A stretch of 7,416 nt of DNA from Naegleria gruberi (taxonomy: Eukaryota), in NCBI GenBank assembly GCA_000004985.1, contig GG739140.1; one strand, given 5' to 3'. Below are positions 244 to 7,321 of this stretch, one piece after another. A model generated the notes under the pieces. It was not told the origin of the DNA and made no database searches. It worked only from the letters and a program-made list of their open reading frames with translations. Positions within the stretch are counted from its first letter, which is position 1. The number at the start of each line of letters is the position of its first letter. Both the position numbers and the translations under genes were made by a program.

Positions 244-779
244 CAAGTTGGAGTTGAGCATTTCTACATTGGCATTGATTAGGAGATTGACAAGAGCCAT
301 TTCTACAAACTTTTGAACTATTGAAAATTTCACCATAGTAACTTCTTTACAAAGTTCTTACTAGTGATACAAAATCTCAATTAGAAATTGAATCTTATTT
401 ACAATTCGATTTTACAATTTCCAATAATTTCTCCAAAACCAAAGAATGGAGTACTCTCTGCCACTAGCTCAATATCTAGAGGAGTTGCTTTGACAGATAT
501 TTTCCAATTTACATCAGTTGAATTCTCTGCCTCTCAAATATTGCAACGGAATCAGAGATTTCATCCATGAGTTTCTCTGTAACAACATATTTTCATTGAA
601 AAAGGTTGGTAAAAAGACTACAGCACCACAGGTTCCCAAGTTGTCTCCAACCTCAGTACTGATGTGGCTCGACGATGCTTAACTTCTCAAATCGGACGGG
701 ATGAGGTGCATTCATCGTGATATGGCCGTAGCCATTCATAACCTTAAATAGCAAAATATGAATCAGTTCAACATTGCAA

Positions 780-869: not shown

Positions 870-2189
870 TTATTTGAATTGGGCAAAAAATTCCTCTATA
901 TTTTCTAATACATTATCAAAAGTGACACTTTGGAGCTCTTTTAAAGGTTTCAGATGTGAATAATCGTAATTTGTATCTGTTTCATCACACGTTCCTTCTT
1001 CTGGTTCTCCAACTCTGAAAAAACAATAAGGAGTCCAATAGAATATTTCGTTAGAAGCTTCTCCACAAATTACAATTTCGTCATATCCACTAACAATAAC
1101 ACAATAATGGTGCCTTCCATTAACATAATAAAGACTCTTTTCTTGATAATCAAAATCATGGACATCGACTATTGGCTCCGAGTAAAGGGCATGAGCATCC
1201 TTATAAGCTCCATAGGTTTGATAGTCTATGTCATCTCTATTGATAGCTCTATAATTTGCAATGAGATTTGAGACATACTCAAAAGCTTCATCTTTGATTT
1301 TTGGATTTTTGATTGTTTTGACATCTCCATAATCATAAGCTGCAGTGAGCTCTTCATCTATCCAAAATATAGTAAGAGGATCAAGATCCAAACCATCATC
1401 TCCTATTTGACCAGCTTGAATTGGGGCAGATTTAGTTTTTCTTTTTCTTGGTACAAGATTTTGCACATTTTTCCAAACTCTTTTACCAGGTTTCATATAA
1501 TTGACAAGATATCCTCGACTATACACCAAACCGACAATACAGGCACAAATAGACTCGAAATCTAAATTTTCCTCCAATATTCCATCAATGAATTGTTTCA
1601 CTTTCTTTTGGATCTTTCTTTTACGATTCGAATAGCACTCCCTTAAAAACTTATTCTCTGATTTATCTAGCAAGAGAATCCTGAAATATTGATACCCGTA
1701 AACTTCTTCATCATCTCCACCATTTATATGATCAGGAAAAAACATTAAAAGCTTGAATTTCCCACCATTTGACTTTCTCAAAGTAACTATGAATTTATAC
1801 TCTCCATTTTTCAAAAAGCATTTTCCTGAAATGAATTGATTTGCAATTTCTGGAATATAGTATTTGTTGCCTTTTTTAGGATAGGAAGCAAAAGATGCCA
1901 TCGATTTGTAAACTAATTCTATTACATATTTAGTCATTCTTTCCGTATGTCTTAAATCATCTCCTGATTTCAATAAGTCAATTAACGAATCTAGTTGATA
2001 AGGCACTGGACATTGACGATAATCATTAACATCTATTCTACGATTATATTTTTTTTCTCCAAAATAACTAATTATAGGACTTTGATTCTTCGTTTTTCCA
2101 TTATTATTATTAGATGGAGGAGGTGGTTCTTTGACATAATTATAAGTATTGAGAATAAAGTTCANATAATAATCGACACAAGTGATGCC
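870..2189 (-). CDS. Hypothetical protein, partial. The reading frame is open from the gap edge at 2189 to a TAA stop at 870-872, at least 440 aa. The first in-frame ATG is at 1935-1937; the ORF-track start at 2006 is a GTG. The true N-terminus is probably in or beyond gap 1. No domain recognised.
   Basis: The six-frame track gives a 378-aa ORF. I extended the same frame upstream by hand through 2007-2189 without a stop (..GITCVDYYxNFILNTYNYVKEPPPPSNNNNGKTKNQSPIISYFGEKKYNRRIDVNDYRQCPV-PYQLDS..). The long uninterrupted ORF in AT-rich DNA and its non-repetitive, compositionally protein-like sequence support a real single-exon coding region. Confidence 0.7.
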   Translation of the reverse strand, partial: GITCVDYYXNFILNTYNYVKEPPPPSNNNNGKTKNQSPIISYFGEKKYNRRIDVNDYRQCPVPYQLDSLIDLLKSGDDLRHTERMTKYVIELVYKSMASFASYPKKGNKYYIPEIANQFISGKCFLKNGEYKFIVTLRKSNGGKFKLLMFFPDHINGGDDEEVYGYQYFRILLLDKSENKFLRECYSNRKRKIQKKVKQFIDGILEENLDFESICACIVGLVYSRGYLVNYMKPGKRVWKNVQNLVPRKRKTKSAPIQAGQIGDDGLDLDPLTIFWIDEELTAAYDYGDVKTIKNPKIKDEAFEYVSNLIANYRAINRDDIDYQTYGAYKDAHALYSEPIVDVHDFDYQEKSLYYVNGRHHYCVIVSGYDEIVICGEASNEIFYWTPYCFFRVGEPEEGTCDETDTNYDYSHLKPLKELQSVTFDNVLENIEEFFAQFK

Positions 2190-2817
2190 NNNNNNNNNNN
2201 NNNNNNNNNNNNNNNNNNNNNNNNNNNNNNNNNNNNNNNNNNNNNNNNNNNNNNNNNNNNNNNNNNNNNNNNNNNNNNNNNNNNNNNNNNNNNNNNNNNN
2301 NNNNNNNNNNNNNNNNNNNNNNNNNNNNNNNNNNNNNNNNNNNNNNNNNNNNNNNNNNNNNNNNNNNNNNNNNNNNNNNNNNNNNNNNNNNNNNNNNNNN
2401 NNNNNNNNNNNNNNNNNNNNNNNNNNNNNNNNNNNNNNNNNNNNNNNNNNNNNNNNNNNNNNNNNNNNNNNNNNNNNNNNNNNNNNNNNNNNNNNNNNNN
2501 NNNNNNNNNNNNNNNNNNNNNNNNNNNNNNNNNNNNNNNNNNNNNNNNNNNNNNNNNNNNNNNNNNNNNNNNNNNNNNNNNNNNNNNNNNNNNNNNNNNN
2601 NNNNNNNNNNNNNNNNNNNNNNNNNNNNNNNNNNNNNNNNNNNNNNNNNNNNNNNNNNNNNNNNNNNNNNNNNNNNNNNNNNNNNNNNNNNNNNNNNNNN
2701 NNNNNNNNNNNNNNNNNNNNNNNNNNNNNNNNNNNNNNNNNNNNNNNNNNNNNNNNNNNNNNNNNNNNNNNNNNNNNNNNNNNNNNNNNNNNNNNNNNNN
2801 NNNNNNNNNNNNNNNNN
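2190..2817. other. Assembly gap of 628 N. There is also a single N at 2165.
   Basis: Run of n characters in the sequence. The non-round length suggests a scaffold gap sized from read pairs. Confidence 0.99.
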
Positions 2818-2902
2818 TGGGAAGTACTGCAGACATTATCTACCTCTTAGCATCTCCGATAAATATCATCAATTATTTTAATAATCAGTTGGCAATGATT
2901 TT

Positions 2903-3477: not shown

Positions 3478-3876
3478 TTAACTTACAATCTCACAATACT
3501 TTTTAAGATATTCAAAACTTGGAGGTACGTTCAATAATATCAATGGTATCAACATTTTGAATCGAGTTCCAAAAATTACTGATCTTTCCTCCACATTCTT
3601 CATATATTTCACAAATGAATGCTCGTTCACCTTCTTTTCATTCAAAATATGTACAGTGTGAAACTTTCTCAAATTATCAGAAACTGTTTTGTAAATTTTG
3701 TATTGAACAGATTTTTTGGAGAAGGTTTCCAGCAATTCTTGACAATTTCTAATCTTGAATAATAACCAATTGGATAAGAGTGTTTTCCAGATTATTTCAA
3801 ACCGATCGAGTTGATACCATCCCTTGCAGACTAACATACAGGACATGCCATCTCTGATGTCCAAATGTTCCATCAC
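3478..3876 (-). CDS. Small F-box protein. The F-box core is ..TLRHVMEHLDIRDGMSCMLVCKGWYQL.., followed by about 100 aa with no recognised domain. The annotated start is a GTG at 3876, with an ATG at 3871-3873. The N-terminal part of the F-box is in a different frame (see findings).
   Basis: The translated motif L..H...HLD.RD...C.LVCKGW..L matches the F-box consensus (LPxEIL..IL..LD..DL...R.VCK.W..L). The ORF is 132 aa from the track and the frame stays open upstream to a TGA at 3904-3906. Confidence 0.6.
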   Translation of the reverse strand: MMEHLDIRDGMSCMLVCKGWYQLDRFEIIWKTLLSNWLLFKIRNCQELLETFSKKSVQYKIYKTVSDNLRKFHTVHILNEKKVNEHSFVKYMKNVEERSVIFGTRFKMLIPLILLNVPPSFEYLKKYCEIVS

Positions 3877-3949
3877 GTGCCTGAGTGTGTGTCCGGATGA
3901 ATTTCATGTTGAGCCATTTTTTTTGTAATTGAAAAAGTTCTAGAATCTG

Positions 3950-3964: not shown

Positions 3965-4120
3965 TCCATTTCCACCTCTCTGATTATTCTTATTATTTCA
4001 TTGTCCAAGAATTACTACTGTTCATCTTTTGTTTTTCAGTTCCGATCTAAATTGATGAGAAGATATGATAGGTGAGAATTTCCTTTTAATTTTTTAATTG
4101 AAAATAAATAAATTAAAAAA

Positions 4121-4351
4121 ATGTCTCAACAACCGTCAATGAATCACACAACTTGGTTTGATCAAGATTTGCTGTTGGCCAATATATTTCTCTATTTACA
4201 TCCGTATGAATTATTTGATAATTCTAAATTATCTTCATGTAGAAATGTTTGTAGATCATGGAATGGTTTAATTTGTGGTGAAGAATTTTGTAAATTTTAT
4301 TTTGAAAACCTCGTTTTGTTGTTATTCGTCCGAACCTTTATTAATCAGTAA
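4121..4351 (+). CDS. F-box protein, first coding exon of a partial gene. MSQQPSMNHTTWFDQDLLLANIFLYLHPYELFDNSKLSSCRNVCRSWNGLICGEEF.. is a complete F-box. The remainder of the gene, the substrate-binding domain, presumably lies in gap 2.
   Basis: Clear F-box consensus (DLLLANIFLYLHPYEL...CRNVCRSWNGLI). The start codon sits in an AAAAAAATG context typical of nematodes. The ORF stops 1 nt before the gap unless the candidate intron at 4290-4348 is used. Confidence 0.7.
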   Translation: MSQQPSMNHTTWFDQDLLLANIFLYLHPYELFDNSKLSSCRNVCRSWNGLICGEEFCKFYFENLVLLLFVRTFINQ

Positions 4352-5707
4352 NNNNNNNNNNNNNNNNNNNNNNNNNNNNNNNNNNNNNNNNNNNNNNNNN
4401 NNNNNNNNNNNNNNNNNNNNNNNNNNNNNNNNNNNNNNNNNNNNNNNNNNNNNNNNNNNNNNNNNNNNNNNNNNNNNNNNNNNNNNNNNNNNNNNNNNNN
4501 NNNNNNNNNNNNNNNNNNNNNNNNNNNNNNNNNNNNNNNNNNNNNNNNNNNNNNNNNNNNNNNNNNNNNNNNNNNNNNNNNNNNNNNNNNNNNNNNNNNN
4601 NNNNNNNNNNNNNNNNNNNNNNNNNNNNNNNNNNNNNNNNNNNNNNNNNNNNNNNNNNNNNNNNNNNNNNNNNNNNNNNNNNNNNNNNNNNNNNNNNNNN
4701 NNNNNNNNNNNNNNNNNNNNNNNNNNNNNNNNNNNNNNNNNNNNNNNNNNNNNNNNNNNNNNNNNNNNNNNNNNNNNNNNNNNNNNNNNNNNNNNNNNNN
4801 NNNNNNNNNNNNNNNNNNNNNNNNNNNNNNNNNNNNNNNNNNNNNNNNNNNNNNNNNNNNNNNNNNNNNNNNNNNNNNNNNNNNNNNNNNNNNNNNNNNN
4901 NNNNNNNNNNNNNNNNNNNNNNNNNNNNNNNNNNNNNNNNNNNNNNNNNNNNNNNNNNNNNNNNNNNNNNNNNNNNNNNNNNNNNNNNNNNNNNNNNNNN
5001 NNNNNNNNNNNNNNNNNNNNNNNNNNNNNNNNNNNNNNNNNNNNNNNNNNNNNNNNNNNNNNNNNNNNNNNNNNNNNNNNNNNNNNNNNNNNNNNNNNNN
5101 NNNNNNNNNNNNNNNNNNNNNNNNNNNNNNNNNNNNNNNNNNNNNNNNNNNNNNNNNNNNNNNNNNNNNNNNNNNNNNNNNNNNNNNNNNNNNNNNNNNN
5201 NNNNNNNNNNNNNNNNNNNNNNNNNNNNNNNNNNNNNNNNNNNNNNNNNNNNNNNNNNNNNNNNNNNNNNNNNNNNNNNNNNNNNNNNNNNNNNNNNNNN
5301 NNNNNNNNNNNNNNNNNNNNNNNNNNNNNNNNNNNNNNNNNNNNNNNNNNNNNNNNNNNNNNNNNNNNNNNNNNNNNNNNNNNNNNNNNNNNNNNNNNNN
5401 NNNNNNNNNNNNNNNNNNNNNNNNNNNNNNNNNNNNNNNNNNNNNNNNNNNNNNNNNNNNNNNNNNNNNNNNNNNNNNNNNNNNNNNNNNNNNNNNNNNN
5501 NNNNNNNNNNNNNNNNNNNNNNNNNNNNNNNNNNNNNNNNNNNNNNNNNNNNNNNNNNNNNNNNNNNNNNNNNNNNNNNNNNNNNNNNNNNNNNNNNNNN
5601 NNNNNNNNNNNNNNNNNNNNNNNNNNNNNNNNNNNNNNNNNNNNNNNNNNNNNNNNNNNNNNNNNNNNNNNNNNNNNNNNNNNNNNNNNNNNNNNNNNNN
5701 NNNNNNN
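4352..5707. other. Assembly gap of 1356 N.
   Basis: Run of n characters. Confidence 0.99.
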
Positions 5708-6267
5708 TCATAATCTGAAAGAAATATTTTCCCTCCTTTTCTGTCAATCGCCAATCCTAATGGTTGACTAAAATGAATATTCTCTGCGTCTTCAATTGTA
5801 TGTATCAATATCCATTCATTTTCGTTCATTTCATCATAAATAAAACATGTATTATGAAAAAGTTCAGCAACAAGCATTCTTTTTGGATTGATGAAAACAA
5901 TATCCGTCACTGTTTTGATTTTTTCAAGTTTCAACTCTTTAATGACCTTTCCATTCACATTCACAGTATCTATTATATCCATAGCTCCTTGGGTACTAAA
6001 TCTGAATAATTGTTTCTGATTTCCAATTATTCTAATTGCCATTCCATACAAATGATTTCTTTCAATTTTCCAAATACAATCAGCACTTGATCCTAATCTC
6101 ATTAAATCCTTCACTCTATATTTAAAAGTATACATATCCTCTACAAAATAAATAGCATCATTTTGTTCATGATCAAAATTCTCTTCAATTAACAAGCCAG
6201 TCACTCCTCCTTCAACAAAAAAAGCTCCCAAATATTCATGGTTAGTCAAATTTTCTTGCTTGAGTTT
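5708..6267 (-). CDS. Hypothetical protein, partial. The frame is open from an upstream TAA at 6268-6270 down to the gap edge at 5708, about 186 aa visible. The first in-frame ATG is at 6133-6135. The C-terminus is lost in gap 2. No domain recognised; ..HFSQPLGLAIDRKGGKIFLSDY is vaguely reminiscent of a beta-propeller/NHL-like blade, which I cannot substantiate.
   Basis: The track ORF of 634 'aa' is mostly N; the real part is residues 1-181. I extended the frame upstream by hand. The listed start at 6249 is a TTG, so the start is either the ATG at 6135 or an unseen upstream exon. Confidence 0.5.
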
Positions 6268-6500
6268 TTATAGCGTTTAATCATTGAAGAATTGACTGTT
6301 GCTTAATTTTTTGTGGATGAGGACAAATTATAATGTGCATGCTGTCGATTGTCCATACACTATTAAGGAAACTTCCACCAGTATAATTTGATCTTATTTA
6401 TGAAACTTAGATAAAGAATAATAAAAAAATAATAAGTAGCAATGCTTAAACAAGATAGTATAAACAAAATATTAATAATATATTTTCATCATGAATGAGA

Positions 6501-6572
6501 TCCCGTGTAGTCCAATGGCTAGGATACCTGGCTTTCACCCAGGAGGTCCGGGTTCAATTCCCGGCATGGGAG
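6501..6572 (+). tRNA. tRNA-Glu, anticodon TTC (UUC), 72 nt.
   Basis: Hand-folded cloverleaf. Acceptor stem TCCCGTG/CATGGGA with one G-T pair. D-arm GTCC..GGAT. Anticodon stem CCTGG/CCAGG with loop CTTTCAC (U33, anticodon TTC, A37). T-arm CCGGG-TTCAATT-CCCGG. Discriminator G. The A-box (TAGTCCAATGG) and B-box (GGTTCAATTCC) are intact. It closely resembles canonical eukaryotic tRNA-Glu(UUC). Confidence 0.92.
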
Positions 6573-6576
6573 GATG

Positions 6577-6582
6577 TTTTTT
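6577..6582 (+). terminator. RNA polymerase III oligo-T terminator (T6), 4 nt past the tRNA 3' end.
   Basis: gatgTTTTTTgg lies immediately downstream of the discriminator base. Confidence 0.6.
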
Positions 6583-6620
6583 GGAAGGAATTTCATCAAT
6601 GATCCCTAAAATAAAATCCA

Positions 6621-6626
6621 TTTATT
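6621..6626 (-). promoter_or_regulatory. Candidate AATAAA polyadenylation signal for the RGS gene, about 11 nt downstream of its stop.
   Basis: Plus-strand TTTATT at 6621-6626 is AATAAA on the minus strand. The stop codon is at 6637-6639. Confidence 0.35.
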
Positions 6627-6636
6627 AAAATTTATC

Positions 6637-7321
6637 CTAGACCTTCATTTTGGGTAAAATGCTTAGCTCCTTTTCCAATTGTTTCTCATATGATGCTTGG
6701 AAACGAGTATAATTATCCAACATGTTGTGTTCACAAGCTGTTTGAATTCTATCAAATATTTCAGGAGTGATGGCAAAGAGGAAACTCATATCTTGTGGAT
6801 TTGTGGAAGTTTGCTTTGGAGAAATATTCAATTTTGGAGAAGGTGAAACATTTCCATTTTTAGAAGCAAAATTAATGGTACTGTCTTTTAGGGATTTGAA
6901 GATTTTCTCAATTTCTGGAATTCCAAAATCCTTTCTTGAAATGTTCAATTCAAGAGGAGCTCCAATTCGAATATAAGTATTACAAATATTGTAAAATAAT
7001 TCTCTTCTTTGTTTTTCTGATTTGATTGTTTTGAATTTCTCAATGGCATTCCACATCATGACATCTTCACATGCAAAACATTTTTCTGAGAATTTCAGAA
7101 AGAGATTATTCCACTTTTCATTCAGTAAAATCTTTCGAATGCTACTTTCAGAAGGTTTCGAATGTTGAAGTTTAGAATCAACTGATGGAGTGCTTTCTGT
7201 TTGTTGTTTCTTGTCAGATTTGAATCTTTGAAGGAAGAATACAGGATACGTGAATGAAATTAATGTATCCCACATATTTCCAATTAAAATTGTAATCGTC
7301 CATGGGAAATAATAATCAATA
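6637..7321 (-). CDS. RGS-domain protein, last exon. The first in-frame ATG is at 7273-7275. The frame is open upstream to a candidate splice acceptor at 7321. It has a hydrophobic N-terminal segment (IDYYFPWTITILIGNMWDTLISFTYPVFFLQRF), then an RGS domain with one roughly 40-aa insert, and the protein ends about 15 aa after the domain.
   Basis: The translation matches RGS-domain hallmarks in three places: FLKFSEKCFACEDVMMWNAIEKFK; ELFYNICNTYIRIGAPLELNIS; IFDRIQTACEHNMLDNYTRFQASYEKQL. Corresponding consensus pieces: FL.SEFSEENLEFW.A.E.FK; A..IY..Y....AP.E.N.D; F..AQ......M..DSY.RFL.S..Y. The ORF is 212 aa from the ATG. Confidence 0.8.

Follow-up and report, generated by a model that had tools for sequence, protein, structure and literature searches.

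A putative one-AC-unit frameshift behind the start codon of an unannotated F-box paralog in Naegleria gruberi

Introduction

The closest described counterparts of the locus reported here are two Naegleria gruberi proteins, NAEGRDRAFT_51840 (XP_002673035.1; P0002 in our search; 600 aa) and NAEGRDRAFT_68578 (XP_002676284.1; P0004; 607 aa). To these can be added two proteins from N. lovaniensis (C9374_001862 and C9374_010854), found as P0003 (660 aa) and P0005 (621 aa), and two from metagenomes, P0007 (632 aa) and P0008 (614 aa), each encoded by an uninterrupted ORF, of 632 and 614 codons respectively, on its contig. Proteins of this family carry an N-terminal F-box, presumably docking on Skp1 in an SCF ubiquitin ligase, which would be followed by a conserved helical linker and then by a long helical C-terminal region; no Pfam domain was found in the relatives beyond the F-box. 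In the Skp1-Skp2 structure, the LPxE(L/I)L part of the canonical F-box contacts Skp1.

We analyzed a further copy of the N-terminal module of this family. It resembles NAEGRDRAFT_51840 and NAEGRDRAFT_68578 in its N-terminal ~125 residues, with the EI(V/I)WKTLLSN block, the FGxRFKxL motif and a short leader before D-T-L. Unlike these two proteins, it has a +2 frameshift after codon 10, lacks residues ~130-600 and has no gene model. The N. lovaniensis pair and the two metagenomic proteins belong to the same family and share the same N-terminal module, with 32-37% identity to our copy; they are full length (614-660 aa), and the N. lovaniensis proteins have longer N-terminal leaders.

The window, by which we mean the whole stretch of DNA analyzed, is an entire 7.4-kb scaffold (7416 bp) of the Sanger-based N. 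gruberi NEG-M draft. This 8x-class assembly reaches a scaffold N50 of 160 kb (PMC9928731, Table 1) and has a size of ~41 Mb at 33-35% GC (PMC9928731 Table 1; PMC8296547 table). Genes of this species have a mean of 1.7 exons (PMC8296547 table), its introns average 203 bp, and a minimum intron of 30 bp was used in Naegleria mapping (PMC8296547). N's make up 27% of the scaffold (1984 N's), and the sequenced bases amount to 5431. The two gaps and the lone N at 2165 (Table 1) are typical signs of thin coverage, which bears on the trust to be placed in single indels here.

Results

When the 141-aa ORF of the window was run exhaustively against 1.84 billion representatives by phmmer, six true relatives emerged, with E = 1.8e-16 to 5e-14 for the Naegleria proteins. 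The two N. gruberi proteins matched at 43% identity (NAEGRDRAFT_51840, E = 1.8e-16) and 40% identity (NAEGRDRAFT_68578, E = 2.4e-14), while one entry on the same list, P0006, was discarded as a spurious repeat protein. The family surfaced only in this exhaustive HMMER scan; a word-index protein search with the repaired protein (see below) gave no match, and a protein search with the family alignment returned metagenomic members only. When the window was searched in six frames, the family HMM matched with E = 3e-37 over HMM positions 10-125 of 595, and tblastn placed the homology at 3894-3517. The homologous module has its F-box at the very N-terminus and also holds an EI(I/V/F)WKT(L/I)LS block and a helical linker with FGxRFKxL at its end, and the alignment showed that the family's invariant residues within it are kept by the window copy.

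No gene model for the locus was found in public protein collections, whether by the word index, by a look-up of the product expected from the internal ATG or as a phmmer self-hit. Metagenomes were also scanned with a DNA pattern in which 0-10 nt replaced the AC run and, separately, with peptide patterns, and no ortholog of the locus was found. Sequence homology makes this unannotated locus the third N. gruberi paralog in a heterolobosean lineage-specific F-box family whose members are 600-660 aa long.

The features of the scaffold are collected in Table 1. Direct reading of the minus strand bore out all the coordinates of the frame break given in the original prediction, which had been made from the DNA sequence. 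The F-box frame is displaced by +2 (= -1) relative to the frame of the ATG at 3917, and translation revealed no ATG in the F-box frame above the TGA at 3906-3904. The first 10 codons of the remnant ORF represent the original N-terminus of the F-box protein, with HPD aligned to the HAD, YHD or PLD of relatives. The stop of this remnant overlaps the internal ATG as TGATG (3875-3871), a feature absent from the original prediction. An open frame of 141 codons has a probability of ~7e-6 at this base composition.

Table 1. Coordinates of features on the 7416-bp scaffold.
Feature	Position	Strand	Remarks
5S rRNA	615-733	-	Rfam RF00001, 105 bits, positions 1-120 of 120; just downstream of NAEGRDRAFT_76770
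NAEGRDRAFT_76770	870-2006	-	378-codon ORF, 100% identical
Single stray N	2165		
Scaffold gap	2190-2817		628 N
F-box frame	3481-3903	-	141 codons, NSSGHTLRHVMEHLDIRDGMSCMLVCKGW...EIVS; stop TAA 3480-3478
GTAAGT, donor-like hexamer	3482-3487	-	two codons before stop; ORF end ...GAG ATT GTA AGT TAA
F-box domain	3778-3896	-	residues 8-46 of repaired protein; PF12937 25.3 bits, PF00646 22.9 bits
First ATG of F-box frame (MEHLD...)	3871-3873	-	sole protein route from sequence as assembled
14-codon remnant ORF MAQHEIHPDTHSGT with TGA (3875-3873)	3873-3917	-	from translation
(GT)4/(AC)4 run, ACACACAC at 3892-3885	3885-3892	.	site of +2 frame shift
TGA shutting F-box frame upstream	3904-3906	-	from translation
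17-nt start context AAAAAAATGGCTCAACA	3907-3923	-	16/17 match at 4115-4131 (+), at divergent F-box ORF
ATG, ancestral start codon	3915-3917	-	A-run 3918-3924 (seven A's) before, G after
Second F-box ORF	4121-4351	+	Pfam F-box-like 26.8 bits; divergent, 203 nt from first
Scaffold gap	4352-5707		1356 N
NHL-like ORF	5708-6249	-	180 codons open into 1356-N gap; faint NHL-repeat match at end
tRNA-Glu (UUC)	6501-6572	+	ARAGORN and Rfam; between RGS ORF and NHL-like ORF
RGS-domain ORF	6637-7275	-	212 codons uninterrupted; Pfam PF00615, 38.9 bits

A single indel could join both frames only within 28 nt (3903-3876), and the (AC)4 run lies inside this stretch. Dinucleotide runs of at least four units were observed twice in the 5431 sequenced bases, with only the run in the junction stretch being of the GT/AC type; we estimate the chance of such a run falling there at ~1%. 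With (AC)3 in place of (AC)4, the sequence reads GAC ACA CTC (D T L). Deletion of one AC unit produced a 145-aa ORF, MAQHEIHPDTLRHVMEHLD..., with the N-terminus MAQHEIHPDTLRHV..., and both this translation and the N-termini of relatives supported the earlier proposal that removing one AC joins the frames at the start ATG 3917.

The N-termini of the relatives were MMHADTLFCII, MSQLYHDTLYCIL, MSQLPLDSVFCI and MSSLHLPLDTVFCI, their openings being MMHADTL.. (NAEGRDRAFT_51840), MSQLYHDTL.. (NAEGRDRAFT_68578), MSQLPLDSV.. and MSSLHLPLDTV... The general pattern is M-x-Q/H...D-T/S-L/V, placed straight behind an A-run. An invariant Asp precedes (T/S)(L/V) in the family alignment. It corresponds to D9 of the window copy, where its codon (GAC, 3893-3891) lies in the frame of ATG 3917 and the T-L-R-H-V that follows lies in the F-box frame. 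The unrepaired F-box frame reads G-H-T-L, and the invariant Asp is regained only by the join. The family trait of D-(T/S)-(L/V) lying 4-10 residues behind the initiator Met, all in a single frame, is missing from the window copy as assembled; its Met and Asp stand in a different frame from the T-L, and removal of one AC unit is needed to unite them. The same holds for the Pro at the start of F-box helix 1, which comes from the ATG frame and appears, as H-P-D-T-L, only after the join. The Trp of F-box helix 3 is present in the F-box frame (CKGW).

Repairs of the junction were compared using a family HMM built without the window sequence, against which we scored all 87 distinct proteins arising from one 2-nt deletion or 1-nt insertion at the junction. 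Deletion of an AC unit (any AC unit) ranked first of the 87 with 125.5 bits, followed by repairs scoring 125.0 and 124.2 bits, and the median of the 87 was 121.0 bits. The unrepaired ORF scored 121.1 bits, so that the profile gain from the join (+4.4 bits) is real but modest. The original prediction was to fall if the joined protein scored no better than the truncated one, and the product of the internal ATG reached 117.9 bits, below the joined form. It was likewise to fall if reads uniformly showed (GT)4 and paralogs had an unrelated upstream exon, and no such exon was seen among the relatives.

Pfam profiles gave the same order. With PF12937 (cut-off 24.3), the joined protein scored 25.3, the unrepaired ORF after the TGA 24.4 and the internal-ATG product 20.4; with PF00646 (cut-off 20.5), the scores were 22.9 for the joined protein and 20.5 for the unrepaired ORF, and the internal-ATG product gave no hit. 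The joined protein was therefore above both F-box thresholds, the unrepaired ORF borderline and the internal-ATG product below. The TLRHV segment, encoded after the upstream TGA and before the internal ATG, was worth +3 to +4 bits.

Start contexts were also compared with those of the metagenomic relatives, which are ...CAAAAAATGTCACAACTT and ...TTAAAAAATGTCATCACTT, with ...ACAAAAAAAATGGCTCAACAT in the window. These relatives share an A-run, an ATG and an (S/A)-Q start, with AAAAA-ATG-TCA-CAA or AAAAA-ATG-TCA-TCA at the homologous position, so that P0007 and P0008 both begin with an A-run, ATG, TC(A) and CAA/TCA. Because the AC deletion is the top-scoring repair and restores the invariant Asp, these sequence comparisons identify ATG 3917 as the ancestral start and the lesion as equivalent to a gain of one AC, from (AC)3 to (AC)4, after codon 10, giving a +2 shift.

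A single-sequence phmmer search of the PDB gave weak F-box matches (E = 0.1-1) to beta-TrCP1, Skp2 and TIR1, and the family alignment, used as a profile against the PDB, matched nothing. An AlphaFold model of the 141-aa ORF, built on an alignment of five sequences, was of poor quality (pLDDT 64) and was used solely to place helix 1; in this low-confidence model helix 1 spans ORF residues 7-13, with the internal Met as residue 11. A product started at the internal ATG would lack H-P-D-T-L-R-H-V, the counterpart of LPxE(L/I)L.

The original prediction had described a complete, ~146-aa F-box-only protein, a description at odds with the relatives, all of which are 600-660 aa long and matched in the window over their first ~125 residues only. 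The C-terminal helical region of the family (~470 positions) is absent from the sequenced window beyond HMM position 125, as judged by six-frame HMM and tblastn searches. Between the stop of the F-box ORF and the 628-N gap lie 660 nt of 24-28% GC in which no credible ORF was found. The GTAAGT at the end of the ORF raises the possibility, on its sequence, that the ORF may be a first exon with a downstream exon. The locus is thus either 3'-truncated or interrupted by an intron of at least 660 nt, with an acceptor in or beyond the gap, compared with the N. gruberi mean of 203 bp. The product of NAEGRDRAFT_76770 was considered as the missing C-terminus and rejected on homology, being unrelated (hhalign probability 0.3%), though a domain-swapped fusion with it is conceivable.

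No frame break was seen in the other features of the scaffold, namely three ORFs (378, 212 and 180 codons), the 5S rRNA and the tRNA. The second F-box ORF shares AAAAAAATG(G/T)CTCAACA at its start with the first, and begins M-S-Q-Q as against M-A-Q-H. The 17-nt start context was found twice in the window, with zero matches expected from 200 shuffles. This second ORF ends in CAGTAA exactly where the 1356-N gap begins, and on its sequence this ending resembles a splice donor more than a genuine stop.

For NAEGRDRAFT_76770, no relatives beyond itself were found in 5.8 billion proteins, and no Pfam domain was detected. Its frame is open for 69 nt above the annotated ATG, and on the far side of the 628-N gap an ATG-led frame (MSAVLP) at 2836 runs into it (2818-2846, minus strand); the model may be 5'-incomplete. 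An exact match to the RGS ORF was absent from the gene-position index, and the NHL-like ORF probably represents the 5' end of a longer gene, the rest of which lies in unsequenced DNA. An ORF at 6491-6628 was set aside as spurious, being a translation of the tRNA-Glu. A scan for bacterial promoters and terminators gave background counts and is irrelevant for a eukaryote.

Discussion

The age of the window copy can be judged from its N-terminal module, where the 43% and 40% identity to the two N. gruberi paralogs may be set beside the 48% that they share with each other. Since this divergence is comparable to that between the paralogs, we regard the copy, from its sequence, as an old paralog and not a recent duplicate. 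The 141 open codons and the conserved residues that have been kept indicate that the module was under selection for most of its history, and an open frame in so old a copy means that the lesion breaking the start must be recent, unless it is not real. A long-dead fragment would carry stop codons; as none is present, both lesions would be young, or the short form would have been functional until recently.

Our tentative preference is for a real, young lesion in a truncated paralog, in which case the locus would be a pseudogene or null allele and not a working gene. The homology, the ancestral start and the place and size of the lesion are shown by the sequence comparisons; we infer that the extra AC is in the organism's DNA, that the truncation is real and that translation is affected as follows. 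Polymerase slippage would have extended (AC)3 to (AC)4 after codon 10 and shifted the frame by +2. A scanning ribosome would then start at the first AUG (3917), in its strong A-rich context, and would make a 14-residue peptide ending at the UGA. The overlapping UGAUG could permit slight reinitiation at best, yielding a 131-aa F-box protein without the first half of helix 1, and with the C-terminal region also missing the locus would be null or nearly so.

It is only slightly less likely that the organism has (AC)3 and an intact start, with the extra AC confined to the low-coverage Sanger consensus. We would then be dealing with a functional paralog, either naturally short or with its remaining exons in unassembled sequence. 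Such an artefact would fit a 7.4-kb scaffold whose gaps of 628 and 1356 N and lone N at 2165 are typical of thin coverage, and an ORF that is otherwise fully open and retains all family-conserved residues, as in a live gene. It would also fit the GTAAGT at the end of this ORF, and the absence of a gene model, as from a predictor tripped by the error. However, ~3 kb of coding sequence elsewhere on the scaffold is unbroken, as are the 5S rRNA and the tRNA, and with these other features intact pervasive indel error is not evident. The gain of exactly one repeat unit is a signature of polymerase slippage, base-calling errors usually being of a single base, so a clean extra unit is more typical of slippage in vivo. 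Sequencing error would, in addition, leave the missing 470 C-terminal positions unexplained. We consider it unlikely that the locus functions as assembled, with the 14-codon ORF acting as a uORF and termination-reinitiation at UGAUG giving low levels of the N-truncated 131-aa protein from the ATG at 3873. The stop and start do overlap exactly (TGATG, 3875-3871), the downstream frame is open for 131 codons, and a short uORF favors reinitiation in eukaryotes. Yet this supposed uORF is homologous to coding sequence at the N-terminus of the relatives, in which no uORF exists and the corresponding ATG is the start, and the TLRHV upstream of the internal ATG still encodes F-box residues contributing those +3 to +4 bits. 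The internal-ATG product also falls below the Pfam F-box thresholds and begins inside the predicted helix 1. A native start at 3871-3873, offered as one option in the original prediction, is accordingly disfavored by the homologous N-terminus upstream and the weaker F-box score.

An intron or unseen upstream exon supplying the true N-terminus, which would make ATG 3917 irrelevant, seems very improbable. N. gruberi does average 1.7 exons per gene (PMC8296547), and a CAG (3883-3881) directly follows the AC run. A tiny intron joining the two frames was nevertheless rejected on geometry, as the frames overlap within 28 nt, below the 30-bp mapping minimum (mean 203 bp). Stops occur in all frames upstream, and the relatives carry the F-box from the outset and agree with the peptide of the ATG frame; their Pfam F-box match starts at residue 2-7, so that no upstream exon is expected. 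The least credible reading is programmed recoding, in which a tRNA-Thr would slip by +2 from ACA (3890-3888) to ACA (3888-3886), or transcriptional slippage would occur, to produce the full-length protein. A +2 slip on ACACAC would allow perfect re-pairing and would yield exactly MAQHEIHPDTLRHV..., but the X-XXY-YYZ slippery heptamer is absent, and folding of the 95 nt behind the run gave z = +0.32, indicating no downstream structure. Furthermore, the zero-frame stop lies four codons past the slip site and not at it, and the arrangement is shared by no relative, all of which are in frame. If recoding were true, a dinucleotide-repeat frameshift would regulate an apparently broken heterolobosean gene to give low levels of an F-box protein.

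The value of the locus is mainly one of annotation, with a third N. gruberi paralog recognized, its ancestral start fixed and its defect pinned to one AC unit. If the lesion is real, slippage in a short repeat has killed a gene very recently in a polyploid, heterozygous protist, and the case is a clean one; an artefact would add one further functional F-box gene to the catalogue. Either outcome is unsurprising to specialists. The small scaffold itself deserves re-assembly, holding as it does an F-box remnant, a second F-box exon, an orphan gene, a 5S rRNA, a tRNA-Glu and an RGS gene.

Compared with known F-box proteins, residues 12-49 of the repaired protein align by phmmer with the F-box of beta-TrCP1 (1P22/6M90). 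Canonical F-boxes (PF00646/PF12937; beta-TrCP1, Skp2 1FS1, TIR1 2P1M) have the usual Leu-Pro where the window copy has His-Pro, and, unlike canonical F-box proteins, the window copy carries no WD40, LRR or Kelch substrate domain. Pseudogenes and null alleles caused by microsatellite indels offer the other comparison. As in those cases, the lesion in the window corresponds to an exact one-unit dinucleotide gain leading to a frameshift and an early stop, but here the run is very short, lengthening from three to four units.
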